Source: Candidatus Omnitrophota bacterium (GTDB lineage Bacteria; Omnitrophota; Gorgyraeia; Zapsychrales; JANLHA01). From it: a stretch of 32,000 nt of DNA. The DNA is taken from positions 960,001 through 992,000 of the forward strand of contig OY759724.1 of the NCBI GenBank assembly GCA_963662715.1. The letters run 5' to 3'. Positions 4,530 through 31,010 of the stretch are shown piece after piece; within the stretch, counting starts at the first letter, position 1; each line of letters opens with the position of its first letter. The notes beneath the pieces were generated by a model, which searched no databases, was not told where the DNA came from, and saw only the letters and a list, made by a program, of their open reading frames with translations. The translations under genes and the position numbers were made by a program.

Positions 4530-4542
4530 AAGGCCTCCGGCA

Positions 4543-12683: not shown

Positions 12684-12721
12684 ATTGTCTGTAATCTCCG
12701 GATATGTTCAAACACTGCGAC

Positions 12722-12750
12722 AATTTATCACAGGATAGTCTGTTTGTCAA
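12722..12750 (-). promoter_or_regulatory. Candidate sigma70 promoter for the bamD-lptE-holA operon
   Basis: On the minus strand: TTGACA (12745-12750), a 17-nt spacer, TAAATT (12722-12727). It lies about 40 nt upstream of the ATG at 12683. Confidence 0.55.
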
Positions 12751-12788
12751 TTACGGTCCATGGCTATGCAAAAACAGAATATCCCGGA

Positions 12789-14748: not shown

Positions 14749-14857
14749 AAATAAATTATCTGTCCTTGGTTAACAGTGTAAAAATGGATGACTGTGGGAT
14801 AATAATTATCAGGGGAAAGCTGGGGAAGAATAATGGGGAGAATGAAATATTGATAAA

Positions 14858-14885
14858 ATTTTATCAAAAAAGGCCTGATTGTCAA
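14858..14885 (-). promoter_or_regulatory. Candidate sigma70 promoter for comEA-comEC
   Basis: On the minus strand: TTGACA (14880-14885), a 16-nt spacer, and an extended -10 TGaTAAAAT (-10 hexamer at 14858-14863). The -10 lies inside the perfect 16-nt palindrome TGATAAAATTTTATCA (14851-14866). Confidence 0.55.
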
Positions 14886-14907
14886 TTTTTTTCAACAGAG
14901 CTGTTTT

Positions 14908-14947
14908 CCAAAAAATAGAAGAGACAGCCCGTAACCGGGCTGCCTCT
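14908..14947 (-). terminator. Rho-independent terminator downstream of the TRL lipoprotein gene
   Basis: On the minus strand: AGAGGCAGCCCG-GTTA-CGGGCTGTCTCT, a 12-bp stem with one G-U pair, followed by TCTATTTTTTGG. On the + strand the same position is an A-C mismatch, which favours function on the minus strand. Confidence 0.75.
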
Positions 14948-14970
14948 TTTATACCTGATACGGCTTTCAG

Positions 14971-15273
14971 TTACTCCCCATAAGCGACAACACACTGCTG
15001 GGCGAATAAAATGTAATTGCTGTATTTTTGATCTACAACGTTGACTTTGGAAATACCTGCACTGGCTGCTGCGTCAACCACAGATGCATTTCCGAACGGA
15101 CCCAAAAGCCCTAAAACATAAAGCTGGCAGGATTCACCCTGTTTCATGGTTTCAGAAAAATCTGTCGACTGAAGATCGGTGGAGTTGATGACCGGCGTCC
15201 ACAACGTCGTACATCCAACAAGCCCCATTCCGACAAGACATAAAACCAATAATTTAATACCAACTTTTCTCAT
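14971..15273 (-). CDS. TRL-like family lipoprotein
   Basis: Lipobox MRKVGIKLLVLCLVGMGLVGCTT. TRL-like core: GESCQLYVLGLLGPFGNASVVDAAASAGISKVNVVDQKYSNYILFAQQCVVAYGE. AGGAGG-type SD (aaaaGGAGGcagtATG). Confidence 0.7.
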   Translation of the reverse strand: MRKVGIKLLVLCLVGMGLVGCTTLWTPVINSTDLQSTDFSETMKQGESCQLYVLGLLGPFGNASVVDAAASAGISKVNVVDQKYSNYILFAQQCVVAYGE

Positions 15274-15371
15274 ACTGCCTCCTTTTGTGATTTTTATGAT
15301 TTATCTATCCTGCTTAGTCTTAAAGCTTTTATAAAGATGAACGCGCCGCGCACCCGGGATAGGATATTATT

Positions 15372-15399
15372 GTTATAATACAAATTAATTTTTTAGCAA
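15372..15399 (-). promoter_or_regulatory. Possible sigma70 promoter for the TRL gene
   Basis: On the minus strand: TTGCTA (15394-15399), a 16-nt spacer, TATAAC (15372-15377). The same DNA reads TGtTATAAT on the + strand (TATAAT at 15374-15379), so the orientation is ambiguous. Confidence 0.3.
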
Positions 15400-15650
15400 T
15401 AGGATAATACTGCCTAAAGTTGACCTTTTTTGACATCTATCCGGGAATCTCACGTAGAACACTCGCTATAAGAAACCGCAAGAATGCACAACAGTCATTT
15501 CTTATGTCGTATATTATGCGTTTAGCCAATTCAAAAGTCAAGACCTTCAGTCATATGTTTACTAAGAAAATAACAACGACTTTGTTTAAGCATTCGCTTA
15601 AACACTAATGAAGATATAAACAAAAATGGACATTCTGATGCTTAAATCGG

Positions 15651-17777: not shown

Positions 17778-17822
17778 AGATTCAAAAAACAGGGCCGGGG
17801 GACAACCCCTTTATAATCCTTT

Positions 17823-19232
17823 CTAAAAATAGCACATGTCATTGGGGAAGCTGACGTGAAAATTAACCGTCATAACTTTTGCAAGACTGACGCACAAAAA
17901 CAATACAAACAGGACAAAGCTGACGGCCCGGGCTTGCGTGTCTTTGATGTCTTGAATTCGTTCAAAAACCCTGAACATGGCAAAAGCCGCCAATATCATT
18001 AACAATGGTAAAACCATCAGGACGTACCGGGACTGATAATTCCCGTATAAAGAAAAAAACAGGAAAGAAAGCAGCCCGGTCAGTTCGACAAAAAGAATCC
18101 GGGGAGTTTTCTTTATTAAAGAGGAGAGAAAAAATGCCAGATAGGACAATATATAGAACAATGAAAATCCCGGCAATCTTTTCAGGTAAAAAAACACTCC
18201 TCCCTCCCGGCTGAAGGTGTACCGGTTCCAGGATGTTTCAGGGAAGTGAGAGAAAGACAAGCTGGACATAACGGGTTGGAACAATAAATAAACAAGGACA
18301 AGAAGCAATCCTATACGAATCCGTTTAAGAGTCTGGGGTGTCAGCTGAAATTTTGAACGTATATGCCGGATGCACCCCTTTCCTTTCTCCGGGAAAAACA
18401 CGCATACGCCGAGAGCCGCACAAGAAAGAAAAATCACTGAAAAAACGGGAATTGTTAAATGAATGCCGTGTTTCGTGAATATATTCTTAAAAAATCCCAA
18501 ACCGTAAACATTCAAATTCCAGATGATCCAGGGGACCAGCATCACCCAGGGGATGGCAAGACTTAGACGAAAACAAGAATTTTCATGCCATTCTCTGTCG
18601 AACAGACTGACATAAAAAATCACCGCCGCACACATGAGGATTCCGGGGTATTTTGTCAACACGGCGAGGCCGATTGCAAATCCCCCCCATAAGAACAGCT
18701 TGGGCCTAGCGGTCAGAAAAGCCCGCGCATAAAAATATACGGCTAATAACGCAAAAAAGGCCAGGGTTGTATCCAGCCAGACTTTTTGAGAACAAATAAT
18801 AGAAACAGGATCAATCGCTATTAAAAAAGCCGATAACAATCCGACTTTATCCCCCCCCAATAAAGACCCCAACAGGAAAGTCAAAGGAATCAGAAGACAG
18901 CCGAAAAGCAAAGGGATTAAGACAACGGAAAAAGTCGCCTCCTTAAAAAGAACAAGGGATGTTGTCAGAAGATAGGAAAATAACGGGGGATGCTTAAAGA
19001 GCGGATCAAACAAATAGGGCAGAAGCTTGTCCCTATTCTTTGAGCGGCTGATGTATTTGTTCGTATTATAAATAAGAGGATTTTCCTTTAGCTGCAGGGC
19101 AATGCTGTAAAAGGCATTTTCATCAATTGTGACACGGTGTGTCTTTTTATGATTATAGAAATTGGTTAAACGAACCGAGAAAGACAGGCAGGTTAAACCA
19201 ATAATAAGAATCCAAATGCCTTTTTTATCCAT
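17823..19232 (-). CDS. GT-C fold glycosyltransferase, family 39 / ArnT-PMT-like
   Basis: 469 aa and polytopic (more than 10 TM helices). First-loop acidic motif VTIDENAFYS and the typical ArnT/PMT_2-like hydrophobic layout (LAVLTKYPGILM). The family call rests on architecture and remembered motifs. Confidence 0.6.
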   Translation of the reverse strand: MDKKGIWILIIGLTCLSFSVRLTNFYNHKKTHRVTIDENAFYSIALQLKENPLIYNTNKYISRSKNRDKLLPYLFDPLFKHPPLFSYLLTTSLVLFKEATFSVVLIPLLFGCLLIPLTFLLGSLLGGDKVGLLSAFLIAIDPVSIICSQKVWLDTTLAFFALLAVYFYARAFLTARPKLFLWGGFAIGLAVLTKYPGILMCAAVIFYVSLFDREWHENSCFRLSLAIPWVMLVPWIIWNLNVYGLGFFKNIFTKHGIHLTIPVFSVIFLSCAALGVCVFFPEKGKGCIRHIRSKFQLTPQTLKRIRIGLLLVLVYLLFQPVMSSLSFSHFPETSWNRYTFSREGGVFFYLKRLPGFSLFYILSYLAFFLSSLIKKTPRILFVELTGLLSFLFFSLYGNYQSRYVLMVLPLLMILAAFAMFRVFERIQDIKDTQARAVSFVLFVLFLCVSLAKVMTVNFHVSFPNDMCYF

Positions 19233-19251
19233 AAAATCCCCCCCCTCTTTA

Positions 19252-19306
19252 GGGACCGGGTCCCTTCATCTTATTGAATTATATCAGGTTACTACAGAAG
19301 TGTCCC
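19252..19306 (-). repeat. Left terminal copy of the 55-nt composite repeat
   Basis: GGGACCGGGTCCC at 19252-19264, a 30-nt spacer, and cAGAAGTGTCCC at 19295-19306 (the reverse complement of GGGACACTTCTg). It overlaps the last codons and the stop of the transposase gene. Confidence 0.8.
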
Positions 19307-19787
19307 CGTAATTATCTATTTCTATCAATTCAGGATTACAGCCCTTCTCCTTATACTGACGATAACTACTCCACAAATATTCATCTGCATTTTTTACAAT
19401 CCCCGCTTTCACTGGATTATTGTGGATGTATTCTAAACAGTCATGAATATAACTTTCTTCCTCAATAAGCCTGCACTGAAATCTTCCCTGCCAAACATGG
19501 CCAATATAATTCTCAAGTTTTCTATAATTGAAACTAAAAGATAATAATATTTTCTGCATGATACATGATATGTTGTGCCGCCTGTTTGCCTCAATAATCA
19601 TGTGCACATGGTTATCCATAATAACAATGCCATATAATTTGAAACCTAACTGCTTTTTATATTTATTTAATTTGTTAATAAAAAGTCTCTTAAAGTTATG
19701 ATCTTTAAAAATTTTTCTGCGGTTGTTACCTCGAGCCATGACATGATATACAGCATTATCATAGTAAATTCGTGCCATTCTTCCCAT
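19284..19787 (-). CDS. IS200/RayT-type tyrosine (Y1, HUH) transposase
   Basis: HUH motif in IVIMDNHVHMIIE and the catalytic-Tyr helix DCLEYIHNNPVKAGIV. 167 aa. N-terminus YYDNAVYHVMARGNNRRKIF is typical of the REP-associated/IS200-like transposase family (PF01797-like). GGAGA SD. Confidence 0.8.
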   Translation of the reverse strand: MGRMARIYYDNAVYHVMARGNNRRKIFKDHNFKRLFINKLNKYKKQLGFKLYGIVIMDNHVHMIIEANRRHNISCIMQKILLSFSFNYRKLENYIGHVWQGRFQCRLIEEESYIHDCLEYIHNNPVKAGIVKNADEYLWSSYRQYKEKGCNPELIEIDNYGDTSVVT

Positions 19788-19801
19788 GCATCTTCTCCTT
19801 T

Positions 19802-19839
19802 CAAAAAAAATACCCCTTGGATATTTATCCTTGGGGTAT
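19802..19839 (-). terminator. Terminator-like hairpin immediately upstream of the transposase RBS
   Basis: On the minus strand: ATACCCC-AA-GGAT-AAAT-ATCC-AA-GGGGTAT followed by TTTTTTTT, then GAAAGGAGAAGATGCATG (RBS and start). Confidence 0.5.
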
Positions 19840-19936
19840 TTATAATTATGCTGATTTATTATACCAAAATTAAAGATAGATGACGATTATTTGCTAAACG
19901 CTCTTTGAATTATTTAACAGCCCTCCTGTAGATTCG

Positions 19937-19991
19937 GGGACACTTCTCCCACAACCTTATATCGCACATAATGTTAAAGGGACCCGGTCCC
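19937..19991 (+). repeat. Right terminal copy of the 55-nt composite repeat
   Basis: GGGACACTTCTC at 19937-19948, a 30-nt spacer, and GGGACCCGGTCCC at 19979-19991. The palindrome encodes the last residues (GGTGSL) and abuts the stop of the anti-sigma/vWA ORF. Confidence 0.8.
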
Positions 19992-22091
19992 ACCTTTGAA
20001 TTGAATTCCGCCTTCACCATATCCTCCGCCATCTTCATAGTAAATATCCTCATCAACCCGACGGTCCAGCTGCTGTGCCCGCCTCACCAAGTCCAGAAAT
20101 TCCCCGCGGTAACCATAAGGATCTTCCCCCCCGGCGCGCGCCGCCTGCTCCAGAACATGATGATAAGAAGCCTGGCCTTTAAACTCGGAATTCCTCAACA
20201 GCAATCCGAATTCCGCCACCGCCGCGGCAAACTGAAAATCCCCCTGCGGCGTATCTGCCATCTCCCCACTCCGGATAGACTGCTGAATCAGCCGGCTTTT
20301 ATGGCCGTCCGGCTGCTTATACCGCAGTTTCACGGTCATCAAGTCCTGGCTTTCAACCACCTGGTTCTGCTGGTACACCAAATCATCAACAGACCGGAAC
20401 GTTTCCGTTGACTCTGCCGGCACAATTTCATAAAGGGCCGTGACCGTGTGTCCGGCTCCCAATTCCCCGGCGTCTTTCGTGTCATCGTTAAAATCCTCTT
20501 TGGCCAGCATACGGTTCTCATATCCGATCAGACGATACGCCTTCACCTGCCCGGGATTGAACTCCACCTGAATCTTGACATCCTTGGCAATCGTAAACAG
20601 CGTTGAACCCAATTCCTGAACAAGGACTTTCTGCGCTTCCCGGTCCGTGTCGATATAGTAGTAATTGCCGTTGCCCTTGTTCGCCAGCTGCTCCATTTTG
20701 GAATCTTTATAATTCCCCATTCCAAAACCCAAGACCGTCAAAAAGATCCCGTCCTGTCTTTTATCCTCTATCATGCGGACCAATTCCGCATTGCTGCTGA
20801 CCCCGACATTAAAATCTCCGTCAGTAGCAAGAATCACCCGGTTGTTGCCGCCCTTTATAAAATTCTGCTTCGCGATATTATAAGCCAGTTTGATGCCTGC
20901 CCCGCCCGCGGTTGAGCCGCCGGCCTGCAGCCGGTCGATCGCGGATAATATTTTCTGTTTATAATGGCCCGGGGTTGACTCCAAGACTTGCCCCGCGGCT
21001 CCGGCGTACACCACGATCGCAACCCGCTCTTCCCCGGTTAATTGCCTGACGAGCATTTTTAGAGAAGCCTTAAGCAAAGGAAGTTTGTTAGCGCTGTTCA
21101 TGGATCCTGACACATCGACCAGAAAAACAAGATTACTAGGAGGGATTTCCTCTTCCTGATAAACCTTTCCCTGCAGTCCTATTCTGACCAATTGATGCGC
21201 CCGGTTCCACGGGCAGGCCGCGCCGTTAATCGTTATAGAGAAGGGGTCTTCCCCTTCCGGCTGCGGATAGTCATAGGTGAAATAATTGACCAGTTCTTCA
21301 ATCCTGACGGCGTCTTCCGGAGGCAGTTGATTATTATTAAGGAAGCGTCGCATGTTGCTGTAGGACGCTGTATCCACATCAATGGAAAACGTGGAAAGAG
21401 GGTTTTCCTGCACCGCCATAAACTGGTTCTCATAAATCCGGTCATATTCTTCCGTATGGAAAGCCGGGTTATACCTCCAGGATTCATCTTCAGCTGCATC
21501 GCCGTCGCCCCCCCAGTATTCCTGTTCAACGCTGATAATTTTCGACGGCGCAAGTCCTCCGGCAGCCTTCTCCCTCGTCCTTGCCGGAGAGTGTCCTTCC
21601 GTTTTCGTTACCGAATAATCCGTGCTCAAATAATACGGTTCGTACTGCCGGGTCTTTTTTCCGGCTAACTGCTGATACGGCCCCGCCGAAGTCTTGCCTG
21701 CGCTGTACTGATCGCCGATATCATCCGAAGCGCTCCTGATACGCCCCTGGATGCTTCTTTGGGCATACATTTGCAGCGATAAAATACCTATGATCAATGT
21801 GGCTGCAACCCCGCCGCCAACCGTCATCTTGACAAATGAACTTCGTTTCATCCCTGTATCCTCCCTCATCCCTTTAGCAAGAGCACTCATGATCTCATTC
21901 TCCAGATCAGGGGACAGGTCTTCTTCGGGTAATACGTCCAAAGCCTGATTAAGATTCCGCAATTCTTTATAGTAGGCAGAACAGGACTCTGACTCCTTCA
22001 AAAGAGCCTCAACCTGACTTTTCTCTTGCTCATTGACCTCGCCATCAATATAACGGGAAATTAATTCTTTTAATTTTTCATGCTCGTTCAT
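19974..22091 (-). CDS. Anti-sigma factor N-domain + TM + YfbK-like von Willebrand A (MIDAS) extracytoplasmic domain fusion
   Basis: N-terminus LISRYIDGEVNEQEKSQVEALLKESESCSAYYKEL is an anti-sigma N-domain without a full HxxxCxxC. One TM helix (VGGGVAATLIIGILSLQMYA). vWA N-terminal-like region (LSTFSIDVDTASYSNMRRFL). MIDAS motif LVFLVDVSGSMNS, with TDGD further downstream. The long C-terminal region resembles YfbK/DUF3520. The start overlaps the ECF sigma stop (ATGA) and follows AAGGAGGAG. Confidence 0.75.
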   Translation of the reverse strand: MNEHEKLKELISRYIDGEVNEQEKSQVEALLKESESCSAYYKELRNLNQALDVLPEEDLSPDLENEIMSALAKGMREDTGMKRSSFVKMTVGGGVAATLIIGILSLQMYAQRSIQGRIRSASDDIGDQYSAGKTSAGPYQQLAGKKTRQYEPYYLSTDYSVTKTEGHSPARTREKAAGGLAPSKIISVEQEYWGGDGDAAEDESWRYNPAFHTEEYDRIYENQFMAVQENPLSTFSIDVDTASYSNMRRFLNNNQLPPEDAVRIEELVNYFTYDYPQPEGEDPFSITINGAACPWNRAHQLVRIGLQGKVYQEEEIPPSNLVFLVDVSGSMNSANKLPLLKASLKMLVRQLTGEERVAIVVYAGAAGQVLESTPGHYKQKILSAIDRLQAGGSTAGGAGIKLAYNIAKQNFIKGGNNRVILATDGDFNVGVSSNAELVRMIEDKRQDGIFLTVLGFGMGNYKDSKMEQLANKGNGNYYYIDTDREAQKVLVQELGSTLFTIAKDVKIQVEFNPGQVKAYRLIGYENRMLAKEDFNDDTKDAGELGAGHTVTALYEIVPAESTETFRSVDDLVYQQNQVVESQDLMTVKLRYKQPDGHKSRLIQQSIRSGEMADTPQGDFQFAAAVAEFGLLLRNSEFKGQASYHHVLEQAARAGGEDPYGYRGEFLDLVRRAQQLDRRVDEDIYYEDGGGYGEGGIQFKGGTGSL

Positions 22092-22669
22092 GACCGCTCC
22101 TCCTTAATGAAGGAAGCCAAATGCCCTCTTAATTGCTCTTTAGCCCGGAAAATAAGGATTTTCACTTTCTCTAAAGAGCAATTAAGAATGACACTGATCT
22201 GCTCATAACTCATCCCATGATACTGCCGCAGAACAATCGCCTCCTTATATTCAAAAGGAAGCTTCTCCAGGGCCTGTAGCACATGCCCGGTTAATTCCCT
22301 TCTGGCCATGTCTTCCCGCGACAGCTCCGCGGTATCAGGGGGATCCCATTCCTGAAACCCGTCTTGGCCGGAAGAATGAAAGAAAAGGGAAGTTAAAACT
22401 TTGCGCTTACGCATCCTGCTGACGCATTTGTTCCTCGCAATGGTGTATACCCAGGTGGAAAAACGGACGTTCCTGCCTGGATCATAGGTACAGTCCTCGA
22501 TTAAGATCGTAAAAACATCTCCGGTGATCTCTTCGGCATCGGCCCGGTTGCCTAAAAGACGCAGGCAGAAATTAAACATACGGGTTTTGTATCGCACATA
22601 AATCATACGGATCGCCTCACGATCGCCGGAAAGATATTCGGTTATAATTTGTTCGTCGGTTTTTTCCAT
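22088..22669 (-). CDS. ECF (group IV) sigma-70 family RNA polymerase sigma factor
   Basis: Region 2 (NRADAEEITGDVFTILIE, FSTWVYTIARNKC) and region 4 (LPFEYKEAIVLRQYHGMSYEQISVILNCSLEKVKILIFRAKEQLR). 193 aa. Translationally coupled to the anti-sigma gene. Confidence 0.9.
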   Translation of the reverse strand: MEKTDEQIITEYLSGDREAIRMIYVRYKTRMFNFCLRLLGNRADAEEITGDVFTILIEDCTYDPGRNVRFSTWVYTIARNKCVSRMRKRKVLTSLFFHSSGQDGFQEWDPPDTAELSREDMARRELTGHVLQALEKLPFEYKEAIVLRQYHGMSYEQISVILNCSLEKVKILIFRAKEQLRGHLASFIKEERS

Positions 22670-22695
22670 GGGATGGCTGAACCTTTCATCCGTTT

Positions 22696-22722
22696 ATTCG
22701 CACGGCCGGAGCAAAAGTTACA
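22696..22722 (-). promoter_or_regulatory. Possible ECF-type autoregulated promoter
   Basis: On the minus strand: TGTAAC (22717-22722), a 16-nt spacer, CGAAT (22696-22700). It lies about 27 nt upstream of the sigma start. The AAC...CG(T/A) layout resembles ECF promoters. This is inference only. Confidence 0.25.
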
Positions 22723-22792
22723 AAAAATCCGCACAAAATCCTTAGATTTCCTAAGATTAAACAAGGCAATGAGATAGGCAACATGTACTATA

Positions 22793-22849
22793 CCAAAAAA
22801 CAAAGGGGCACGCAACGCCCCCCTTAAAAAGAGAACCGCTGCGTGCCCC
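22793..22849 (-). terminator. Rho-independent terminator after the TPR gene
   Basis: On the minus strand: GGGGCACGCA ... TGCGTGCCCC, a 10-bp GC-rich stem (22840-22849 pairs with 22805-22814), followed by TTTGTTTTTTGG. Confidence 0.65.
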
Positions 22850-22877
22850 GGAGCTATCCTGCGTTTTCCTTAATAAA

Positions 22878-23339
22878 TCAGTCTTCCAAAACCGCCAATT
22901 GATCTTCAGCGGCTTTGGCCGGGGCCCAGAACCAGGGCCCGTTGGGGTCCCAGCATTGCCCGTATGTATACTCTTCCACCAATAATTTAAAAACATCCCT
23001 GGCTTCTTCATCACGTCCCAATTCTAAAAGAGCCTTGGCTTTAATAAACAAACTGGTTGAAACATCGTTTAGGGCCCAGTAGTTATTATGGATGTCCTCC
23101 GTGTCCCCCGAAGGATAATCTTCCAATGTCGCCTGCATTTCTTTTGCTTTTTCAGCATAAAGTTCAATACATTTATCCGTATAAACAATCGCTTCCTTGT
23201 AATTCTTGCTGCCCAAAGCCCCCCAGGCTTTGACTGTCAAGGTTGATGATTTGTAATCCCCGAAATCCAGGGCAAAGGCTATTGAACTTACGGCGATACA
23301 ACAAAGCACACTTGCTAAAATGACGATCTTCTGTTTCAT
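22878..23339 (-). CDS. Small secreted TPR-like protein, unknown function
   Basis: Signal peptide MKQKIVILASVLCCIAVSSIAFA. Helical repeat-like sequence (NYKEAIVYTDKCIELYAEKA..., LFIKAKALLELGRDEEARDVFKLLVEEY). AAGGAG SD. Confidence 0.5.
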   Translation of the reverse strand: MKQKIVILASVLCCIAVSSIAFALDFGDYKSSTLTVKAWGALGSKNYKEAIVYTDKCIELYAEKAKEMQATLEDYPSGDTEDIHNNYWALNDVSTSLFIKAKALLELGRDEEARDVFKLLVEEYTYGQCWDPNGPWFWAPAKAAEDQLAVLED

Positions 23340-23364
23340 CTTTTTCTCCTTTTCTGAAAGTCCA

Positions 23365-23396
23365 CCGGCCCGGGGCCGAAAAAAACGCCGGGCCGG
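23365..23396 (-). terminator. GC-rich hairpin between the GH gene and the TPR gene (possible attenuator/terminator)
   Basis: CCGGCCCGG (23365-23373) pairs with CCGGGCCGG (23388-23396). On the minus strand the loop carries T7. An alternative short hairpin, GCCGGCCCGGC plus a T-run, starts 10 nt after the stop. The structure is ambiguous. Confidence 0.3.
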
Positions 23397-23406
23397 CCTT
23401 CCTGTT

Positions 23407-24639
23407 CTATTCTGAATATTTCTCCTTTAACACATAATACGCTTCCCTCGGGTGCAGGATATCCAATCCTCCGGGAACAGGATTCGGCTCCTTGGCCATG
23501 ACCCCGAACCATTCATCATTCATATAACTGTCCGGTCCGGCACGGAAATCCGGACTGTAGCCGTAATCATGCGTCACCGCAGAGACGGACCAGGCTCCGT
23601 CACGTTTCCACCACCCGTCGGCATACTGAAAAGCCACCCCGCCGATAGCCGGCCCGTCATTGACAAAGCTGTAGGACTTGATCGTATCCCAAGATTCTGC
23701 CAGCTCTCTGGCCTGCAGATCCTGGCGTTCCTTGCCCCGTTCAGGATGGTCGCCGCTTAAGACGAACCAGGCATCTGTTCCGAATTCTGTTATCAAAACC
23801 GGCTTTTCAGAACGCCGGGCATACTGTTTAAAGAAATTGTTCCCTTGGGACCCGAAATCACCGTTCCGGTAGACATTGCACCCGTGGATGTCTATCTCCG
23901 GCAAAACAGCATCCGTGGCTATAACACCGATATCTCCCAGATCGGCGGAAACCATCATAATCGGATGAAAAGACCCGCCTTCGATTTTTTTAATCTCCCG
24001 CGCAATATCATTGATGAATTCATAATACGCGGCGGCCTGCTCCTCTCTCCGGCACGTCTTTTCCGCCTCTGGAAACGAACAAAATGCGACTTCGTTTTCA
24101 TTGGCAATACCCCACATTAAAATAGCCGGGTCATCTTTAAACTTCCTCACGTAACTTAAAATATCCACTTTGACCGCCGTCAAATCATCGTGAACATAAT
24201 CCAGATGATGCGGAATCCAGTACCCCGCAATGACCTTGATCCCCAGTTCATTGGCTTTTGCAAGCAGCTGGTGCGTTACTTTCCCCCAGGTCCGGATCGT
24301 GTTGGCATTCATGGTTTTGATCAGAGGCAAATCCCTCTCCAGGACAAGAGGATTTTCGTATTCCTGCTCCCCGAGACATTCGAATTTCGGTTCGCCCTGT
24401 TCTTCGCCCCTGTACCAGCATAAGCCGTACTGGCAAGGGAACGAGCCGATAGGGGTGTTGGAATATCCCATGCCTTTAACCAGATACGGATCATACCGGC
24501 CGTCCTGTTCAAAGTCCGTCAACAGCTGACGTCCGTCAACTTTAACGGATTGATACGCCTGACACGGCTGGCTCAAAAGACATACGGCACAGACCGCCGT
24601 ACCGAAGATTACGAACAACAGCATATACGTGCTTTTCAT
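23407..24639 (-). CDS. Secreted clan GH-A (TIM-barrel) glycoside hydrolase/transglycosylase, short paralog
   Basis: Signal peptide ending QPCQA. Acid/base-type motif ILMWGIANENE and nucleophile-type motif PVLITEFGTDAW. Also NANTIRTWGKV and IDIHGCNVY. Three conserved Cys (CQYGLCWY...FEC). AAAGGAGG SD. Confidence 0.7.
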   Translation of the reverse strand: MKSTYMLLFVIFGTAVCAVCLLSQPCQAYQSVKVDGRQLLTDFEQDGRYDPYLVKGMGYSNTPIGSFPCQYGLCWYRGEEQGEPKFECLGEQEYENPLVLERDLPLIKTMNANTIRTWGKVTHQLLAKANELGIKVIAGYWIPHHLDYVHDDLTAVKVDILSYVRKFKDDPAILMWGIANENEVAFCSFPEAEKTCRREEQAAAYYEFINDIAREIKKIEGGSFHPIMMVSADLGDIGVIATDAVLPEIDIHGCNVYRNGDFGSQGNNFFKQYARRSEKPVLITEFGTDAWFVLSGDHPERGKERQDLQARELAESWDTIKSYSFVNDGPAIGGVAFQYADGWWKRDGAWSVSAVTHDYGYSPDFRAGPDSYMNDEWFGVMAKEPNPVPGGLDILHPREAYYVLKEKYSE

Positions 24640-24700
24640 ACAGACCTCCTTTGCTTTCTCAAGGTCAACGTTTCTTTATGACATCTTTTCCTGTCTTCAG

Positions 24701-24752
24701 ATAAAAAAGGCACCACCTCCTTTGAGATGAGGATTGCAAAGGAGTCAGTGCC
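24701..24752 (-). terminator. Rho-independent terminator closing the gntR-to-peptidase operon
   Basis: On the minus strand: GGCAC-tga-CTCCTTTG-(12-nt loop)-CAAAGGAG-gtg-GTGCC followed by TTTTTTAT. On the + strand the arms are 24709-24713/24748-24752 and 24717-24724/24737-24744. Confidence 0.6.
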
Positions 24753-24762
24753 TTGATATACT
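24734..24762 (+). promoter_or_regulatory. Candidate + strand sigma70 promoter (orphan)
   Basis: TTGCAA (24734-24739), a 17-nt spacer, and an extended -10 TGaTATACT (24754-24762). No + strand CDS lies downstream. Confidence 0.4.
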
Positions 24763-24768
24763 GATACT

Positions 24769-24852
24769 TGCAAACAGTAATGAGGACTGGCTCCCATGCT
24801 ATCCTCAGGTTACTTACGGTGTACGGGTGGCCGCCCGTATGCCGTTTTTTTA
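24769..24852 (+). ncRNA. Candidate small RNA of about 80 nt (promoter-to-terminator unit on the + strand)
   Basis: Predicted start is about 7 nt after the -10. Internal hairpin GAGGA(24782-24786)/TCCTC(24802-24806). Terminal hairpin ACGGTGTACGGG-tggccg-CCCGTATGCCGT (24816-24845, 12 bp including two G-U pairs) followed by a T7 run that exists only on the + strand. Confidence 0.35.
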
Positions 24853-24879
24853 TTCAGAACATATATGTTCGTTTCGCAT

Positions 24880-25896
24880 TTAAAAAAGGTACTCTGTCCT
24901 CGCCTGCATCATCCAGGCGTGCCAGTCTTGTTCCAGCTGCGCCACGCCCCCCGGATAATAATGATCAACGACCCGGTAACTTGGGAAATTGTCATGGCTG
25001 AACCGTCTCAATTCATGAATAACACCGGAAAGCGTCGCCCGCCCTCTGTCCGTTGAGAATAAAAATGTCGTCAACGACCAGGCTATCGTGCTCATCGGCG
25101 CCCCTTCCTGTCCGTTGCGCTGGCGCCACTCACTCTCCGAGAAGTCGAAATAATCTTTCAAAGGCATAAGGGTCCGATCCCTTACCCATTTCTTGATCCG
25201 TCTGTCTTTATGATTCTGCGGGCTGACAATAACGTTCCCGCCCTGATACGTCCCGTATTCAAAGAATTCCGCCAGGCCTTCGTCAATCCAGGGCGGACAG
25301 CGGCGGACCTGTTTGCGCAGGATCGCATGACTGGCCTCATGAAAAAGGATTCTTAACATGGCCCGGTCATTTTTATTTCTCCATAAAACCATTTCCTTAT
25401 TCCGCAGGGAATAAAAGCCCGTGTCCGACCGGGAGGTGGATATCTGAGCCTGATAAGCCTTATACGCGTTGAAATCTCCGAAAAGCCTGGCCTTAAATGT
25501 TCTCTCCCTGTTGAAATCAAGCCCTAAGATCCCTTCATAAACGGCAAACATTTTAGAAATAACATAATCAATTTCCTCTTTCATCGAAGGAGACATGGAA
25601 TAGTTCTCGGTTGAGATTTCAACATCCATTAAGGAAAACGGCAAGGCCGCCTCAGGCGTCCCGCCGGCTTCCCGGTCTTGACCGGAACCGCGCCGGGCTC
25701 CGGAGGACCCCTTTTCCTTTATAAACTTTTTTTGTATGGACAGCGTCCGCCCGTCAGACCGGATTTTAATCATTCTATCCGTCTGGGAAACAATGTCTCC
25801 TTCAATGACTTTTCCGGACTTTAATTGAATGGTCTCGGCCCCCGCCGGGCCCGGGCACAAACAGCAAAAGATAAATATCACGGTCAAAATCATCAT
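24880..25896 (-). CDS. Secreted HExxH metallopeptidase-like protein (DUF1570 / MA-clan-like)
   Basis: Signal peptide MMILTVIFIFCCLCPGPAGA. LFHEASHAIL zinc motif with a downstream WIDEGLAEFFE (candidate third ligand). The track start is 25908. I prefer the ATG at 25896, which follows GGAG and overlaps the upstream stop as ATGA. Confidence 0.6.
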   Translation of the reverse strand: MMILTVIFIFCCLCPGPAGAETIQLKSGKVIEGDIVSQTDRMIKIRSDGRTLSIQKKFIKEKGSSGARRGSGQDREAGGTPEAALPFSLMDVEISTENYSMSPSMKEEIDYVISKMFAVYEGILGLDFNRERTFKARLFGDFNAYKAYQAQISTSRSDTGFYSLRNKEMVLWRNKNDRAMLRILFHEASHAILRKQVRRCPPWIDEGLAEFFEYGTYQGGNVIVSPQNHKDRRIKKWVRDRTLMPLKDYFDFSESEWRQRNGQEGAPMSTIAWSLTTFLFSTDRGRATLSGVIHELRRFSHDNFPSYRVVDHYYPGGVAQLEQDWHAWMMQARTEYLF

Positions 25897-27875
25897 TTCG
25901 TGCTCCATCCTGTGTTCTTCCGGTCAGAATCCGCCGGAACAATTTCAAAAAGAACATTGGAATACGCCATATCTCCCCGGCCGTCACGCACAAGGACAAC
26001 CACATTTTGGAGGGTCGTTTCCCGGACTTCCGGCGGGATATACATCACCTTCGGGCCCTCCCCCTCAATAGATCCGGCACTGACGATCCACGTATAGGTT
26101 AACGGATCATTATCCTGATCCTCGGCTTTCACCTCGATCATGCCCTTTTTATTCGCCGGTAACGGATGCGGCCTGATCAAGGGCGCCTGCTTGATCAGCG
26201 GGGCATGATTGCCCTTATCCTTTTGCGGCACAAAATTGACATCCACCTGCCCGTACATTTGATGCGCGACCACGGTCACCGGACGTGACCGGCCGTACGA
26301 AAAGGTCGATCCCTCTATGCGGACATCCCCGCAGGTCCGGGGGAATGCAGCGATATCGTAAGCATGACTCCCTCCGGTCCCGTCAATGTATACGGCAACG
26401 GTATACGTCTCATCCGCTTTAACGGCGACAGGTGTCACGTCCGCGTAAATCCATTCATTTTTCGAATCAACTTCGGCCTGGGCCAAAAGATTGCCGGTAT
26501 TTTTATTCCATAACCGTACGGTTTTAGCTCCTTCAAACAATCCTCCCAACTGCGTAACCCGGCCGTCCTGCAAAGGCGTGAAGTGGTAGCCGGCAGTATA
26601 ATTCCATGCCACCCCGTATCTGATCTTATTGTTTCCGGCCCCCTGCCAGGGACGCTGAGGCGGATGGCCGGTAAATTTATGCTGCATGACGGTATAGGCT
26701 AACCGGGGAACGACTTTATCAAGCCCGGCCCCTTTCTCCGGAGGCTGAAGAGCCGTCAGCCCGAACCACTCCGGGTTCGTAAATCCGTCCGGGCCGGTAT
26801 AGAATCCCACGGTATAATTGGTATCATGTTCAGCGGCCGTTGCCGACCATTCCCCCTTATACTGCCACCAGCTGTCTGTGAAAGGGGAAACAATCCCCCC
26901 GATAGCCGGTCCGCCGTAACCGCCCGTATTCTTTAACAAAGTGTCCCATTCCTCGGCGATAAATGACGCCTGCAGGTCCTGCCGCTCCACACCCTTGTGA
27001 GGTTTCTGACCGTCTAAAACAAACCAGGCGTCCGAGCCGAACTCGGAGATCAAAAGCGGCTTGGATGAACGGTTGCCGTATAATTCGAAAAAATTACTGA
27101 AATTGGGCCCCCGGTAAACATTGCAGCCGTGAATATCGATATAATTCAATTTTTCATCAGAAGCGATCTGTCCGATATCCCCCAAATCGGAAGATATCAT
27201 CATCACCGGATGATGGGATTCCCCCTCGATCATCTTGACCTGACGGGCCAGATGGTTGATGAAAGCATAATAGGCTTTAGCCTGTTCCACGCGGTCGCAC
27301 TTGTGCCCTCCCTGGAAATGACAGAGATCCGTTTCATTCTGATAGCCAATGACCCACATGAGCAGCGCCGGATGGTCTTTATAATCCTGAACATACTGCA
27401 GAAAATCCTTTTCAACGCCTTTCAAATCGTCTTTGACAAAATCAATGTTATGCTCAAGCCAGTAGCCGGCGATGACCTTAAGCCCGAAATCCTGCGCTTT
27501 ATCCATGAGCTGCGGGGTGACTTTCCCCCAGGTACGGACCGTATTGGCATTCATCGCTTTGATATACGGGAAGTCCCGGTCCAGGATGGCCGTGTCTTCG
27601 TATTCTTTAATTCCCGGACATTCAAACTGCGGTTTTTCCCCCTCCATGCCTGTATACCGGCAGATCCCGTATTCGCTGGGGAAAGCCCCGGTAGGGATAG
27701 CGTTATACCCCACGCCCTTGACCAAGAAAGGAGTGTATGTCCCGTCCTGATCAAAATCCGTCATAAGCTGCTGCCCCTGGACTTTAACGGTCTGATAAGC
27801 CTGGGATAGACCGGAACACATCAGGATGCCCAAAGTGCAGACAACAGATACCGTCCGTCTGATGCTGTGGCTCAT
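25893..27875 (-). CDS. Secreted clan GH-A glycoside hydrolase/transglycosylase, long paralog with DUF4082-like and Ig-like C-terminal domains
   Basis: The catalytic half is paralogous to 23407-24639 (LLMWVIGYQNE, PLLISEFGSDAW, NANTVRTWGKV). The C-terminus has a DUF4082-like segment (YGVAWNYTAGYHFTPLQDGRVTQLGGLFEGAKTVRLWNKNTGNLLAQAEV...YTVAVY) and an Ig-like segment (EDQDNDPLTYTWIV). I prefer the start at ATG 27875, 5 nt after GAGGAG; the track gives 27890. Confidence 0.7.
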   Translation of the reverse strand: MSHSIRRTVSVVCTLGILMCSGLSQAYQTVKVQGQQLMTDFDQDGTYTPFLVKGVGYNAIPTGAFPSEYGICRYTGMEGEKPQFECPGIKEYEDTAILDRDFPYIKAMNANTVRTWGKVTPQLMDKAQDFGLKVIAGYWLEHNIDFVKDDLKGVEKDFLQYVQDYKDHPALLMWVIGYQNETDLCHFQGGHKCDRVEQAKAYYAFINHLARQVKMIEGESHHPVMMISSDLGDIGQIASDEKLNYIDIHGCNVYRGPNFSNFFELYGNRSSKPLLISEFGSDAWFVLDGQKPHKGVERQDLQASFIAEEWDTLLKNTGGYGGPAIGGIVSPFTDSWWQYKGEWSATAAEHDTNYTVGFYTGPDGFTNPEWFGLTALQPPEKGAGLDKVVPRLAYTVMQHKFTGHPPQRPWQGAGNNKIRYGVAWNYTAGYHFTPLQDGRVTQLGGLFEGAKTVRLWNKNTGNLLAQAEVDSKNEWIYADVTPVAVKADETYTVAVYIDGTGGSHAYDIAAFPRTCGDVRIEGSTFSYGRSRPVTVVAHQMYGQVDVNFVPQKDKGNHAPLIKQAPLIRPHPLPANKKGMIEVKAEDQDNDPLTYTWIVSAGSIEGEGPKVMYIPPEVRETTLQNVVVLVRDGRGDMAYSNVLFEIVPADSDRKNTGWSTK

Positions 27876-27923
27876 ATTTTCTCCTCTCATATATTTCAGG
27901 AAGAAGGATCTTTTTCCCTGAGG

Positions 27924-29627
27924 TTATTTCTTTCGCCCGTGAAATTCCGGCAAATAAAATCCTGAAAATTCCATATCACGCCGGAAGGCGCCTGCCTGCA
28001 CGGCGTCCAGGCGGATCAGTTCCGCCTCTTTTAACCATGAGGCATTCAATTTCACATAAGAGTTCCCTCCGGCATCTACGGGTTTAAAATCATAACGCTT
28101 GACCTTAAAGACAAGCCGGCCGTGCGATACCGGCCAGCCGGCATCAATTCTGGAGGCCGTATGCTCGCGCATGTCCAGGAGGAAAGCCTGTCTTTTCCGG
28201 GGATGGCTTAAGACATACGTTTGTGTGAAATCCGTATAAGAGTCTTCCCGGTCGAAGGGGGTTCCGGCCCTGCCGGACTTGGGAGCAAAAGCCATATTCG
28301 CCGTCTTCTCGCCGACAATGACTGTGACCCCGGACGGTTTCTCTATAATATCCAGAATCATGACGTCGGTCTTGCCGCTTCTGGCGCTCCCCCCTCTCTT
28401 TAAAGGCATTTTCAGGCTTAAACGGTATTGATAAACATCAAAGGTCCCCCGCGCCCGGTATGTCCCGCTGAGATTCTTATACTGCTCATAATCTGTTTCG
28501 GCTAAACGGAACATTTCATAACTGTTTTCCTGCTGCTCATAGGGATTCATAACGATATAATCTTTTAACGCATACTGAATCGGGCTCTGCAGGTCCCGGC
28601 TGGCGATCGACACCCGCGGATGATTAAAGAACATCGTCGATTCCAGCCGAACATCCTGCCCGTACACAATATGCGCCTGGGCGGCATCCCGCAGGACGGC
28701 GAACTGCCCGAGGGGCAAACCCTGAACATTGATGTTGATGTTCACAATCCTTTCTCTGGACAGACGGTTGTTATACTTCATATCCTCGGAAACAGAGACC
28801 CGGCTCTTTTCGACCCTAATGTTTGAAGGGCTTTCCCCGGGGATTTCTGAAGGAACCTTCCGGCCCGGGAAAGAATGTACGGCAACGGTCATCATCACAA
28901 GCCCCGCAAAAAGGCCCAGCACAGTCCTTTTTGTCCGGCGCGTTAAGTATTGATGAAGGATAAGGATGATGCCGGCGGCGACAACCGAAATGTTCTGCGT
29001 GAGACCGGCTTGAGACAATGAAGGGAACAGGGAACGCCCCCAGACGAAATCCGGACGGCTTCCGGGGAAAAACATGCCGACCAGCAGGCCGGACAAAAAA
29101 GGCCAGGCAATAAACAGAGATAATAACAAAAGGATCGTCAGTAAAATAAATTTATGAAACCGCTCGGTCAAACAGGCTGCAAGAAAAACGGGAACGATAA
29201 GCAGACTCTTTTCCAGAAGGATTTCGGGAACAGCCAGCCACAACAAACGGGCAGGAATTCTGCTGACCGCCAGAACCACAAGCTCAACGGACAGAGGAAT
29301 GCCGGCAAAAAAACCGAAGACAAGCATGGCTTTGGCAAAAAATAAAGACAGACGGGACACCGGACGCGTCATCCAGAAAGCGGTCGTGCCTACTGTCGGG
29401 TCGGCCTGAACGATCCTGGGGATATAGATAAACATCAAAAGCCCCTGCAGAAAGCACATCCCCTCCAATAGAAGCGGCAAATAGATGCGGTAGGTGATAT
29501 GCTGCTTTAGAAGCGTAACACCGAGCAGAGTCAGGCCCTGCACCAGACAGACAACGAGAACCCAGGACAAGATGAAAAAGCGGAAACGTTTTAAATCTTT
29601 TTTAAAGACGAGAAAAGGATGGGCCAT
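27924..29627 (-). CDS. ABC-2-type transporter permease fused to a C-terminal non-membrane domain of about 310 aa and unknown fold
   Basis: About 7 hydrophobic helices in residues 1-255, then a hydrophilic beta-rich region with no motif I recognise. AGGAG SD. The gene sits 9 nt downstream of the ATPase gene. Confidence 0.6.
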   Translation of the reverse strand: MAHPFLVFKKDLKRFRFFILSWVLVVCLVQGLTLLGVTLLKQHITYRIYLPLLLEGMCFLQGLLMFIYIPRIVQADPTVGTTAFWMTRPVSRLSLFFAKAMLVFGFFAGIPLSVELVVLAVSRIPARLLWLAVPEILLEKSLLIVPVFLAACLTERFHKFILLTILLLLSLFIAWPFLSGLLVGMFFPGSRPDFVWGRSLFPSLSQAGLTQNISVVAAGIILILHQYLTRRTKRTVLGLFAGLVMMTVAVHSFPGRKVPSEIPGESPSNIRVEKSRVSVSEDMKYNNRLSRERIVNININVQGLPLGQFAVLRDAAQAHIVYGQDVRLESTMFFNHPRVSIASRDLQSPIQYALKDYIVMNPYEQQENSYEMFRLAETDYEQYKNLSGTYRARGTFDVYQYRLSLKMPLKRGGSARSGKTDVMILDIIEKPSGVTVIVGEKTANMAFAPKSGRAGTPFDREDSYTDFTQTYVLSHPRKRQAFLLDMREHTASRIDAGWPVSHGRLVFKVKRYDFKPVDAGGNSYVKLNASWLKEAELIRLDAVQAGAFRRDMEFSGFYLPEFHGRKK

Positions 29628-29636
29628 AAGAATCTC

Positions 29637-30545
29637 CTAAATATTTAACATCTTCAATTGCCTGGCTTGTATAAGAAAAATCTCCTTCAGCGACATTCCC
29701 TGAACATCGATGTGGGAGACAGACATCAGCTGTTTTCTGTACTGTTTCAGACTTTGCTTTTCCTCAAAAGCCGTATCCACGAAGCAGATAAAACGTCCCT
29801 CCCGCTGCGGGAGAAGCCATTCATCCGGATAATAGACATCTCCGCTCGGGTCTTGTTTTAACGTGACTGTTACGCGCTTGAAACGCTGCTGTAGAGATTC
29901 GGTCGTTTCGCTGAGCTTTAACTCTCCCTGATGAAGGAAACCGACCCAGTCGGCCAAACGCTCCACTTCCTCTATATCATGAGAGGAGATAAAAATGGTC
30001 CAGTCATCAGCCGCGGTCAGCTCCATGATCCCGTCCATAAGATCCTTGCGCGCGACCGGGTCCAGCCCGCTGAAAGGCTCATCAAGGATCAGTAATTTCG
30101 GCCGGTAGGCTAGGGAGGCAATCAGGGCCGCTTTCATTTTCATGCCCCGGGAAAGCGTGTCTATCCGGCCTTGCCGGGGAAGGTCAAATTGTTTCACCAG
30201 CCCCTGACAAAAAGCATGATCCCATTGCGGATACATCGACGAACAATAATTCATGAGTTCATCAACCGTCATGTCCTCCGGCAAAGCCTGATTTTCCGAC
30301 ACATAGCCGATCTGCCGGAATTCTTTGGGGCCGAGAGACCTGGAATCAAGGTCCCAAATGCGCGCCTGGCCTTTCGTCGGCGGCAGGATATTGACAAGGG
30401 TTTTAATGGTTGTGGTTTTTCCGGCGCCGTTGGGCCCCAGGTAAGCATAAATACTGCCGGCCGGGACTTTTAAGTTGAGTTGATTTAAAGCCACTGTCCT
30501 TCCGAACTTTTTTGTTAAATCCCTGGTTTCAATGACGTATTTCAT
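29637..30545 (-). CDS. ABC transporter ATP-binding protein
   Basis: Walker A GPNGAGKTTT, signature LSRGMKMK, Walker B LLILDEPFSGLD and H-loop SSHD. I prefer the start at ATG 30545 (MKYVIETRDL...), which overlaps the gntR stop as ATGA; the track gives 30581. Confidence 0.9.
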   Translation of the reverse strand: MKYVIETRDLTKKFGRTVALNQLNLKVPAGSIYAYLGPNGAGKTTTIKTLVNILPPTKGQARIWDLDSRSLGPKEFRQIGYVSENQALPEDMTVDELMNYCSSMYPQWDHAFCQGLVKQFDLPRQGRIDTLSRGMKMKAALIASLAYRPKLLILDEPFSGLDPVARKDLMDGIMELTAADDWTIFISSHDIEEVERLADWVGFLHQGELKLSETTESLQQRFKRVTVTLKQDPSGDVYYPDEWLLPQREGRFICFVDTAFEEKQSLKQYRKQLMSVSHIDVQGMSLKEIFLIQARQLKMLNI

Positions 30546-30943
30546 TTGTTTTCTTTCTTTTGATGGATATTCCATTGCCACTGGACCGCCTCCAGCAATT
30601 CTTTTTTGGATATTGAAAGACGTTTCGCTTCAATGACCAGACGTTCCACCTCATTGTGCAGCACCTCTTTGCGCTGTTCCTGATTGGCCAGGCTTAATTC
30701 CGAGACAACACTGCCGATGCCTGGTTTAATCTGCAGAAGCCGTTCGTTGACCAGATGCGTTACGACTTTCTGGGCCGTATTGGGATTGATACGCAGTTCC
30801 CGGCTCATTTCCCGTACAGAAGGGAACCGGTCCCCGGCTCTCAAACGTCCGGAGACGATGGATTTCTTTACGGCATAAATAACCTGTTCATAAATCGGAA
30901 CACCGGCTTTGAATGTTACGTTAAAATTAATCATCGGGCCCAA
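30542..30943 (-). CDS. GntR-family transcriptional regulator, YtrA-like subfamily
   Basis: Winged-helix domain VPIYEQVIYAVKKSIVSGRLRAGDRFPSVREMSRELRINPNTAQKVVTHLVNERLLQIKPGIGSVV with a short helical C-terminus. It is 133 aa and is followed by ABC genes, as in ytrA-type operons. Confidence 0.85.
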   Translation of the reverse strand: MGPMINFNVTFKAGVPIYEQVIYAVKKSIVSGRLRAGDRFPSVREMSRELRINPNTAQKVVTHLVNERLLQIKPGIGSVVSELSLANQEQRKEVLHNEVERLVIEAKRLSISKKELLEAVQWQWNIHQKKENK

Positions 30944-30979
30944 ATCTATTTAAATGTTCATCGGCTTAGTGATCTAACT

Positions 30980-31010
30980 GTATTATGCTACATAGTACAC
31001 CAAATGTCAA
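30980..31010 (-). promoter_or_regulatory. Candidate promoter and operator of the gntR-ABC operon
   Basis: On the minus strand: TTGACA (31005-31010), an 18-nt spacer, ATAATA (30981-30986). The imperfect inverted repeat GTACTATG-TAG-CATAATAC (30980-30998) overlaps the -10. Confidence 0.4.

Follow-up and report, generated by a model that had tools for sequence, protein, structure and literature searches.

The 11-kb locus at 19974–30943 of a 32,000-nt stretch of DNA from a Candidatus Omnitrophota bacterium (assembly GCA_963662715.1, contig OY759724.1, positions 960,001 to 992,000; this whole stretch is the window below) is probably a mosaic of three independently evolving units, together with one RNA element that had gone unnoticed. 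An earlier note on this DNA had read the locus as one undescribed nine-gene system, a reading that comparison with related genomes did not support, since the parts differ in evolutionary range: a trio of genes for a GntR repressor, an ATP-binding cassette (ABC) ATPase and a permease occurs alone in more than 65 genomes, the secreted hydrolases that follow it belong to one clade, and the extracytoplasmic function (ECF) sigma/anti-sigma pair at the far end is missing from this site in 4/7 of the genomes of that clade.

All nine genes lie on the minus strand at the positions first proposed, as the open reading frame (ORF) list bears out. The series opens with gntR (ORF 30542–30943; 30542..30934 from the likely ATG start at 30934), which encodes a short, 130-aa GntR repressor of the YtrA subfamily, and continues with the ABC transporter ATPase (29637..30545, 302 aa) and a permease fusion (27924..29627, 567 aa) that joins a seven-transmembrane ABC-2-like domain to a beta-rich periplasmic domain. 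Downstream of this trio come a secreted 665-aa clan GH-A glycosidase with DUF4082 and a C-terminal Ig-like region (the long glycoside hydrolase, or long GH; 25893..27890), a secreted HExxH peptidase of the DUF1570/MA-clan metallopeptidase kind (24880..25896, alternative start 25908), a second secreted clan GH-A glycosidase of 410 aa (the short GH; 23407..24639) and a small secreted TPR protein of 153 aa (22878..23339). The last two genes encode the 193-aa ECF sigma factor (22088..22669) and a fused anti-sigma protein (19974..22091) in which an anti-sigma domain and one transmembrane segment precede periplasmic vWF_A, VWA and YfbK_C domains.

Reading the sequence confirmed the close junctions that had been described: the most plausible ATG of the ABC gene, at 30545, overlaps the gntR stop as ATGA, the peptidase ATG at 25896 overlaps the long-GH stop in the same way, and the genes between stand 9 nt (ABC/permease) and 33 nt (permease/long GH) apart, with a third ATGA overlap linking the ECF sigma and anti-sigma genes. 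Profile searches and terminator hairpins showed the three-unit layout and the domain guesses of the earlier note to be right. The terminator after the TPR gene (22796..22824, minus strand) is a hairpin with a T run at 22824–22802, its 10-bp stem followed by GTTTTTTGG, and the gntR-to-peptidase operon ends in a long hairpin followed by U6 (24707..24760, minus strand; hairpin at about 24760–24713). This second hairpin, placed before at 24701–24752, is real, but it makes up only half of a block of 150 nt in which the DNA is better conserved than anywhere else in the locus. The promoter scan likewise found no sigma70-like promoter on the minus strand ahead of the short GH. A signal peptide or transmembrane segment had been claimed for every non-regulatory product, and most are indeed envelope-located: hydrophobic N-terminal segments or transmembrane helices are present in the short GH, the peptidase, the TPR protein, the permease and the anti-sigma protein, and the N-terminus of the long GH looks signal-like by eye without reaching the hydropathy threshold, but the ABC ATPase has neither.

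Conservation of the repressor/transporter trio

We anchored the synteny analysis on the permease family because it is the most specific protein of the locus, and a scan of one genome per GTDB species yielded 74 loci that were compared with the nine window proteins by tblastn. Most of these loci belong to Verrucomicrobiota and Acidobacteriota and the rest to Planctomycetota, Kiritimatiellia and relatives, Omnitrophota and FCPU426; two come from cultured strains (Chthoniobacter flavus Ellin428 and a Pontiellaceae isolate). The ABC ATPase gene stands directly upstream of the permease gene in all 74 (46–59% identity), gntR stands directly upstream of the ABC gene in 70/74, and the gntR-ABC-permease order is likewise kept in metagenome loci L002 and L005–L007. 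Across five phyla, more than 65 genomes carry the trio without any other window gene, and a Pfam search of 49 ORFs downstream of the trio in 40 loci found no recurrent family, none occurring in more than three. From the kept gene order and the conserved promoter and operator described below, we therefore take the trio to be an autonomous, self-contained YtrA-type repressor/ABC-2 transporter module that is autoregulated through predicted binding of its own operator.

The domain content of the first two proteins matches this assignment. The GntR helix-turn-helix domain (PF00392) covers residues 18–80 of the repressor (E 1.8e-12; 47.2 bits, cutoff 27), residues 13–122 align to the 125-aa PmtR model and residues 9–117 to the Rv1152 model, and a very short C-terminal part appears to replace the ligand-binding domain within the 130 aa, as in the YtrA type, where this part comprises ~50 aa and two helices. 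The ATPase matches ABC_tran (E 1e-22) with Walker A at residue 37, an LSRG signature at 131 and Walker B (DEP) at 155, its best NCBIfam matches being PmtA and DrrA-type exporter ATPases.

The permease gave no Pfam or NCBIfam matches for the window protein, and a sequence search of the permease and the peptidase against the PDB returned nothing significant. Hydropathy and the positive-inside rule predict seven transmembrane helices with the N-terminus inside and a C-terminal domain of ~310 aa outside, and the AlphaFold2 (AF2) model (predicted local distance difference test, pLDDT, 75) likewise has a helical bundle and a beta-rich domain. The top fold match of the bundle is NosY (7o0y_D), a weak one (E 5.9e-3, probability 1.00, target-normalised template modelling (TM) score 0.45). 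A TTAFWxTRP motif is invariant in the family alignment, and the longer motif D-x3-G-T-T-x2-W-x-T-R-P-[IV]-S-R resembles the ABC-2 permease signature. Among 17 family members, two match ABC2_membrane_2 (best E 1.8e-4) and three match ABC2_membrane_4 (best E 0.064), all weakly and below cutoffs. Among known systems, NosFY and GldAF-type ABC-2 transporters come closest through the weak NosY match, and they differ in that the locus here has no NosD/NosL or GldG partner and that its permease has an extra transmembrane helix and a fused periplasmic domain.

Several variations on the trio were seen among the loci. Permeases of ~830 aa (P0095, P0097, P0098, P0100 and P0101, from L005–L007) have an extra helical C-terminal extension of ~260 aa beyond the beta-rich domain, which brings their periplasmic part to as much as ~570 aa, and two members of the permease alignment match HEAT_2 weakly. 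Two tandem permease paralogs follow the ATPase in L033, L044, L051, L063, L064, L067 and others, an arrangement that recalls YtrC/YtrD, and L064 has two complete trios 6 kb apart.

The nearest described systems are YtrA-YtrBCDEF of B. subtilis, PmtR-PmtABCD of S. aureus and MbrR-MbrAB of S. salivarius, in which, as here, a short GntR gene (~130 aa) comes first and an ABC ATPase and permease follow, with a palindromic operator at the promoter; in NCBIfam, the regulator and ATPase here match PmtR and PmtA best. YtrA regulators show strong synteny with ABC transporters, whose ATPase controls them by sequestration, and YtrA-like proteins are found mainly in Bacillota and Actinomycetota (bioRxiv 10.64898/2026.02.18.706565). 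The present trio differs from these modules in occurring in diderm Verrucomicrobiota, Acidobacteriota, Planctomycetota, Kiritimatiellia and Omnitrophota, in having a permease from a distinct unannotated family (seven transmembrane helices plus the ~310-aa periplasmic domain) and, in this Omnitrophota clade, in sharing its operon with genes for secreted hydrolases. Derepression by ligand, toxin or ATPase-mediated sequestration is known for PmtR and MbrR only.

Promoter and predicted operator of the gntR operon

The best promoter match of the region, with 11/12 positions, lies ahead of gntR as a sigma70-type TTGACA-17-CATAAT (30982..31010, minus strand). A palindrome, GGTGTACTA-TGTAGCA-TAATACAGT (30977..31001, no strand assigned), extends over its -10 box and is the predicted site of the YtrA-type repressor. 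The same design recurs upstream of gntR across phyla, with a TTGAC -35 box and then a palindrome, GTGTACTA-N5-7-TAGTACAC, that contains the -10 box in its 3' half and is of the TGTACTA-N5-TAGTACA type, and the strict operator pattern is present in 53/72 loci. Scored with a position weight matrix (PWM) built from the sites, the window operator reaches 24–25 bits against a maximum of 14.8 bits in shuffles, and a PWM scan of the window found no second strong operator within the locus.

Two side observations concern the operator. A weak operator-like match of 16.3 bits (shuffle maximum 14.8) at 17107–17131, outside the locus and inside a histidine-kinase ORF in AT-rich DNA, is probably due to chance. 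In most Verrucomicrobiota and Acidobacteriota loci (within L020–L082) the operator begins ~23 nt before the gntR start codon, compared with 64 nt in the window, and this short distance together with the -10 box within the palindrome implies leaderless or nearly leaderless gntR mRNAs in those loci.

Hydrolase genes of one Omnitrophota clade

Homologs of the GH-A, DUF1570 and TPR genes follow the trio only in L001, L009, L010, L011, L089 and L090, which with the window make seven close Omnitrophota genomes; the locus proteins of the six relatives are 45–84% identical to those of the window. In the other Omnitrophota and Planctomycetota trio loci (L012–L018, L023) tblastn found no GH, and the trio is missing from L003 and L004, where the GH homologs are more distant. 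The hydrolase and TPR genes are thus clade-specific, and their link to the trio is not a general property of the module. The link between trio and hydrolases is nevertheless real within one lineage and, as the junctions suggest, tight enough in the window for co-transcription. A more distant genome, L002, has three GH paralogs around its trio, and the peptidase, the TPR protein and the ECF pair were not found there. The L002 locus (1466–11932) sets the trio among GH-A paralogs of 665, 666 and 643 aa and a MORN-repeat protein, and its gntR, which has no operator of its own, starts 37 nt after a GH gene. A second peptidase-plus-glycosidase case was seen in an unrelated genome, L006, where genes for a BSP (PF04450) peptidase-like protein and a GH92-malectin protein (12351–16574) directly follow the trio.

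The long and short GH proteins are 54% identical over 398 aa. Both give weak matches to GH2 TIM-barrel profiles, the long GH also matching DUF4082, and their Pfam GH2_C scores (20.8 and 17.4) lie just below the gathering cutoff of 21. The AF2 model of the short GH (pLDDT 84, predicted TM score 0.85) is a (beta/alpha)8 barrel, for which a Foldseek search with a limit of E <= 1e-3 gave 361 matches in the PDB; those listed, the top 50, were all GH157, GH158, GH2 or GH72. Among them are laminarinases of GH157 and GH158, uronidases of GH2 and the transglycosylases Gel4 and Gas2 of GH72, at TM scores of 0.5–0.6 and identities of 14–20%. A family profile of the short GH gave a similar picture, with GH158 first (4e-26, positions 78–267 only), then GH157 (2e-20) and then many GH2 enzymes. 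Retaining enzymes of clan GH-A have an Asn-Glu acid/base after strand 4 and a Glu nucleophile after strand 7. All 28 aligned homologs of the short GH keep N180, E181 and E285, the NE acid/base aligning with the LGNE of GH158 and the nucleophile with its TEFG, and the long GH has NE at residue 185 and EFG at 283. Given the modelled fold and the conserved NE and Glu residues, both proteins are therefore assigned, as a prediction, to the retaining enzymes of clan GH-A.

The nearest characterised relatives of these GH proteins cut or transfer beta-1,3-glucan, and beta-1,3-glucan is, at low confidence, our best guess for the substrate. The short GH shares the clan fold and catalytic motifs with GH157 and GH158 (endo-beta-1,3-glucanases), GH72 and the GH2 barrel, but its identity to them is just 14–20% and its GH158 profile match is partial; possibly the GH proteins form a separate family of their own.

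The peptidase has the HExxH motif of zinc metallopeptidases as HEASH at residue 186 and a candidate downstream Glu ligand in EGLAE at 206, with a borderline match to DUF1570 (PF07607, 22.1 bits against a cutoff of 22) and one to Lepto_7_Nterm (E 1e-12). The TPR protein combines weak TPR matches with a hydrophobic N-terminal signal segment, and its small gene is conserved after the short GH in L001, L009–L011, L089 and L090. Two further paralogs of this small protein are encoded at 19836–20666 in L001. After the small TPR gene, all relatives have an opposite-strand gene for a 640–660-aa TPR protein that is missing from the window (L001 12593–14515, L009 16836–18812, L089 15183–17105, L090 6441–8375).

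The ECF sigma/anti-sigma pair

The ECF sigma factor has only regions 2 and 4 (Sigma70_r2 and r4_2, each E ~1e-15) and scores 85.7 bits against TIGR02937 (cutoff 42.9). Its partner matches vWF_A (E 8e-43), VWA (E 1.9e-18) and YfbK_C (E 4.3e-74), with a metal ion-dependent adhesion site (MIDAS) DVSGS at residue 326 and one transmembrane segment at 85–109; an H-x3-C-x2-C zinc motif was not found in the protein sequence. An ECF-type promoter, TGTAAC-N16-CGAAT, lies at 22696..22722 (minus strand) upstream of the sigma gene, the one match in 32 kb (0.01 expected), 27 nt before the sigma start and conserved in L001.

The earlier note had made the short GH unit a candidate target of the adjacent ECF sigma factor, and this was not supported, as the sole motif precedes the sigma gene and none precedes the short GH. 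A search upstream of 24639 for anything like TGTAAC-N16-CGAAT, the conserved spacer included, found nothing similar. The pair itself behaves here as an insertion/deletion cassette, which the window, L001 and L089 have and L009–L011 and L090 lack at this site (3/7 against 4/7). In L001 and L089 the 640-aa opposite-strand TPR gene sits between the ECF pair and the small TPR gene, and in L009–L011 and L090 this gene runs straight into comEA-comEC. The expectation of synteny in relatives was thus borne out in part, in that L001 and L089 keep the order of all nine genes, but these are not kept as one unit elsewhere.

The architecture matches a described class. In the ECF289 group of ECF sigma factors (Casas-Pastor et al. 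2021), the anti-sigma factor has DUF3520 fused to a von Willebrand domain (PMC7826278); here, the sigma gene is followed at +1 by an anti-sigma gene with a von Willebrand factor A (vWA) domain fused to YfbK_C. The missing zinc motif is noted as a difference from ECF289. By its architecture the pair appears to fit the published ECF289 description, and from this architecture and its absence in relatives we therefore regard it as probably belonging to a described class and as a mobile neighbour that is no part of the GH locus.

A conserved spacer with a candidate small RNA

The spacer between the peptidase and short GH genes contains a block of ~150 nt (24705–24856) that is 86–89% identical to L001, L009 and L010, compared with 63–78% DNA identity for the flanking genes. 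The block holds two hairpins that work on opposite strands. One is the minus-strand terminator of the gntR-to-peptidase operon, whose stem, in our reading of the alignment, has G.U wobbles on the minus strand that persist in every relative. The other belongs to a candidate small RNA of ~85 nt on the plus strand (24769..24853), made up of a stem-loop (24781–24807), a single-stranded GGUUACUU linker, a terminator hairpin (24816–24845) and a U7 tail. A promoter-like site for this RNA, TTGCAA-17-(TGn)TATACT, lies at 24734..24762 (plus strand); both hexamers are conserved in seven genomes, except for TTGCCA in L009 and L090, and the 12 nt that follow the -10 box are variable, as one expects where transcription begins.

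Base pairing favours the plus strand for this second structure. Over 140 positions (28 pairs of the minimum free energy structure in five sequences), canonical pairs number 132 on the plus strand and 110 on the minus strand, and the terminator stem at 24816–24845 is paired at 65/65 on the plus strand against 50/65 on the minus strand, where G.U pairs become A.C mismatches. The stem at 24781–24807 behaves alike, pairing on the plus strand, and in a trimmed 22-pair structure 110/110 positions pair on that strand. The terminator hairpin has a 13-bp stem followed by U7 on the plus strand, whereas on the minus strand an A run precedes it, and the stem shows one A-U to G-C compensatory change. The 85-nt candidate folds with a z-score of -4.6, and the minus strand of the spacer also folds well (z = -4.5).

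Rfam gave no matches in the whole window at gathering thresholds and, for the spacer, only spurious eukaryotic miRNA and snoRNA matches with E > 0.1. There is one copy of the candidate RNA per related locus; a covariance-model search found no further copies, L002 and more distant loci included, and a pattern scan of metagenomes returned three contigs identical to known ones and three chance matches in GC-rich coding DNA. A conserved small ORF in the spacer was considered and rejected, its ATG codons not being conserved and an indel breaking the frame. Among 26 translation-initiation regions of the window for which RNA duplex energies were calculated, that of the short GH gave -25.0 kcal/mol, within the random range (mean -19.5, 5th percentile -27.3).

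GadY, encoded between gadX and gadW in E. coli, is a cis-antisense small RNA made from an intergenic spacer opposite an operon mRNA. RNAs of this type have their own promoter and intrinsic terminator, lie on the opposite strand between two co-oriented genes and are fully complementary to the 3' untranslated region (UTR) of the upstream gene, and the predicted layout here is the same. The candidate differs from GadY in sharing no sequence or structure similarity with it and belonging to no Rfam family, and so far only seven related Omnitrophota contigs are known to carry it. With slightly less assurance than we attach to the mosaic as a whole, we consider it likely that the spacer element would act in a GadY-like manner, as a cis-antisense small RNA to the 3' UTR of the operon.

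Alternative readings and proposed mechanism

A contrary reading of the spacer takes the block not as a plus-strand small RNA but as an element acting in cis on the minus strand (a leader or an attenuator) or as a site of protein binding, either of which would control read-through from the peptidase to the short GH gene. Such an element would account for the strong minus-strand terminator in which the block ends directly upstream of the short GH, for the good folding of the minus strand and for the lack of a visible promoter for the short GH, but we hold it unlikely, as the stems at 24816–24845 and 24781–24807 pair perfectly on the plus strand only, with wobbles turning into A.C mismatches on the minus strand, the U7 run follows the hairpin on the plus strand where an A run precedes it on the minus strand, and the conserved TTGCAA-17-TGnTATACT stands at the right distance. 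Far less probable is the original idea that the nine genes make up a single system for remodelling or sensing cell-surface glycans, in which the vWA anti-sigma protein would sense a cue and the ECF sigma factor would drive the short GH and TPR genes. Co-orientation and tight packing, the shared order of nine genes in L001 and L089 and the missing sigma70 promoter before the short GH are what one would expect of such a system; set against them are the absence of the ECF pair at the site in L009–L011 and L090 while all other genes stay, the 640-aa opposite-strand gene that splits the pair from the TPR gene in L001 and L089, the restriction of the ECF promoter motif to the sigma gene and the occurrence of the trio alone in more than 65 genomes.

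A narrower proposal joins only the trio and the hydrolases into a functional unit of the Omnitrophota clade, linked by more than co-transcription, whose ABC transporter would use its periplasmic domain to export, anchor, activate or sense the product of the GH-A and DUF1570 enzymes, for example in an attack on a beta-glucan-containing surface. The 33-nt permease/long-GH gap and the ATGA long-GH/peptidase junction fit this proposal, as do the association kept in seven genomes and, rearranged, in L002 with its three GH paralogs, and the peptidase and GH92 genes directly after the trio in the unrelated L006. We still find it doubtful: the trio loci L012–L018 and L023 have no GH match, no family recurs among the 49 downstream neighbours, and the seven genomes are close relatives, so the association may be a single historical event. 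Somewhat more remote again is a larger version, in which an ancient YtrA-type module would have been recruited as sensor and switch for a secreted attack set (two GH-A enzymes of beta-glucan type, possibly of a new GH family, the DUF1570 protease and the TPR protein), the antisense RNA would gate read-through into the second half of that set, and the permease family would represent a new widespread class of envelope-sensing ABC transporters in bacteria of the Planctomycetes-Verrucomicrobia-Chlamydiae (PVC) group and Acidobacteriota.

The mosaic of independent units, which we prefer, suggests the following mechanism. A repressor dimer on the TGTACTA-N7-TAATACA palindrome over the -10 box of the TTGACA promoter would shut off its own operon, and repression would be lifted when a putative envelope or periplasmic substrate engages the transporter or when the ATPase removes the repressor, by analogy with PmtR-PmtABCD and MbrR-MbrAB. 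In the small Omnitrophota clade the long GH and DUF1570 peptidase genes would have been fused onto the trio operon, and the 33-nt gap and the ATGA overlap would place them under the same induction as the transporter. The short GH and TPR genes, which lie after the terminator, would probably be expressed by read-through, and the antisense RNA may modulate the stability or read-through of the operon transcript. The ECF289-type pair would answer a periplasmic cue of its own through vWA/MIDAS and activate at least its own promoter.

Several points weigh against this account. The sequestration mechanism has been demonstrated in Bacillota only, and we infer, from the DNA, the operon boundaries, the transcription start of the spacer RNA and the read-through into the short GH. 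For the RNA, covariation does not reach significance (299/500 shuffles score as high) because the sequences are too similar, the set comprising six distinct sequences that are 86–92% identical with one compensatory pair. The C-terminal periplasmic domain of the permease had no structural match in the fold search and none in the sequence search either. The association of GH genes with the trio, which survives rearrangement in L002, could still be functional in Omnitrophota. The ECF289 match, finally, takes DUF3520 to be the former name of PF12034 (YfbK_C).

If the mosaic is accepted, the apparent nine-gene system is a juxtaposition, by chance plus history, of modules that each lie near something known (YtrA/ABC, clan GH-A, ECF289), and recognising this prevents a false annotation as a new system. 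In ~70 species-level genomes of little-studied diderm phyla, the unannotated permease family marks a conserved YtrA-type module whose operator is clear, and the regulatory logic of Bacillota could be tested there. The GH-A lineage, at the edge of the beta-1,3-glucanase families GH157 and GH158, could represent a new CAZy family and give a clue to the material that these Omnitrophota break down. The candidate small RNA, by our literature search, would be among the first for Omnitrophota, and it comes with a precise locus and a testable antisense target.

DNA beyond the anti-sigma gene

The flank beyond the anti-sigma gene looks like an insertion hot spot, since relatives go straight to comEA-comEC at this point. 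A low-GC segment (35–44%) at 15000–20000, missing from the relatives, encodes a PMT_2 glycosyltransferase and a histidine kinase of the 7TM-GAF kind, and an IS200-like Y1 transposase gene (19284–19787) directly follows the anti-sigma gene.

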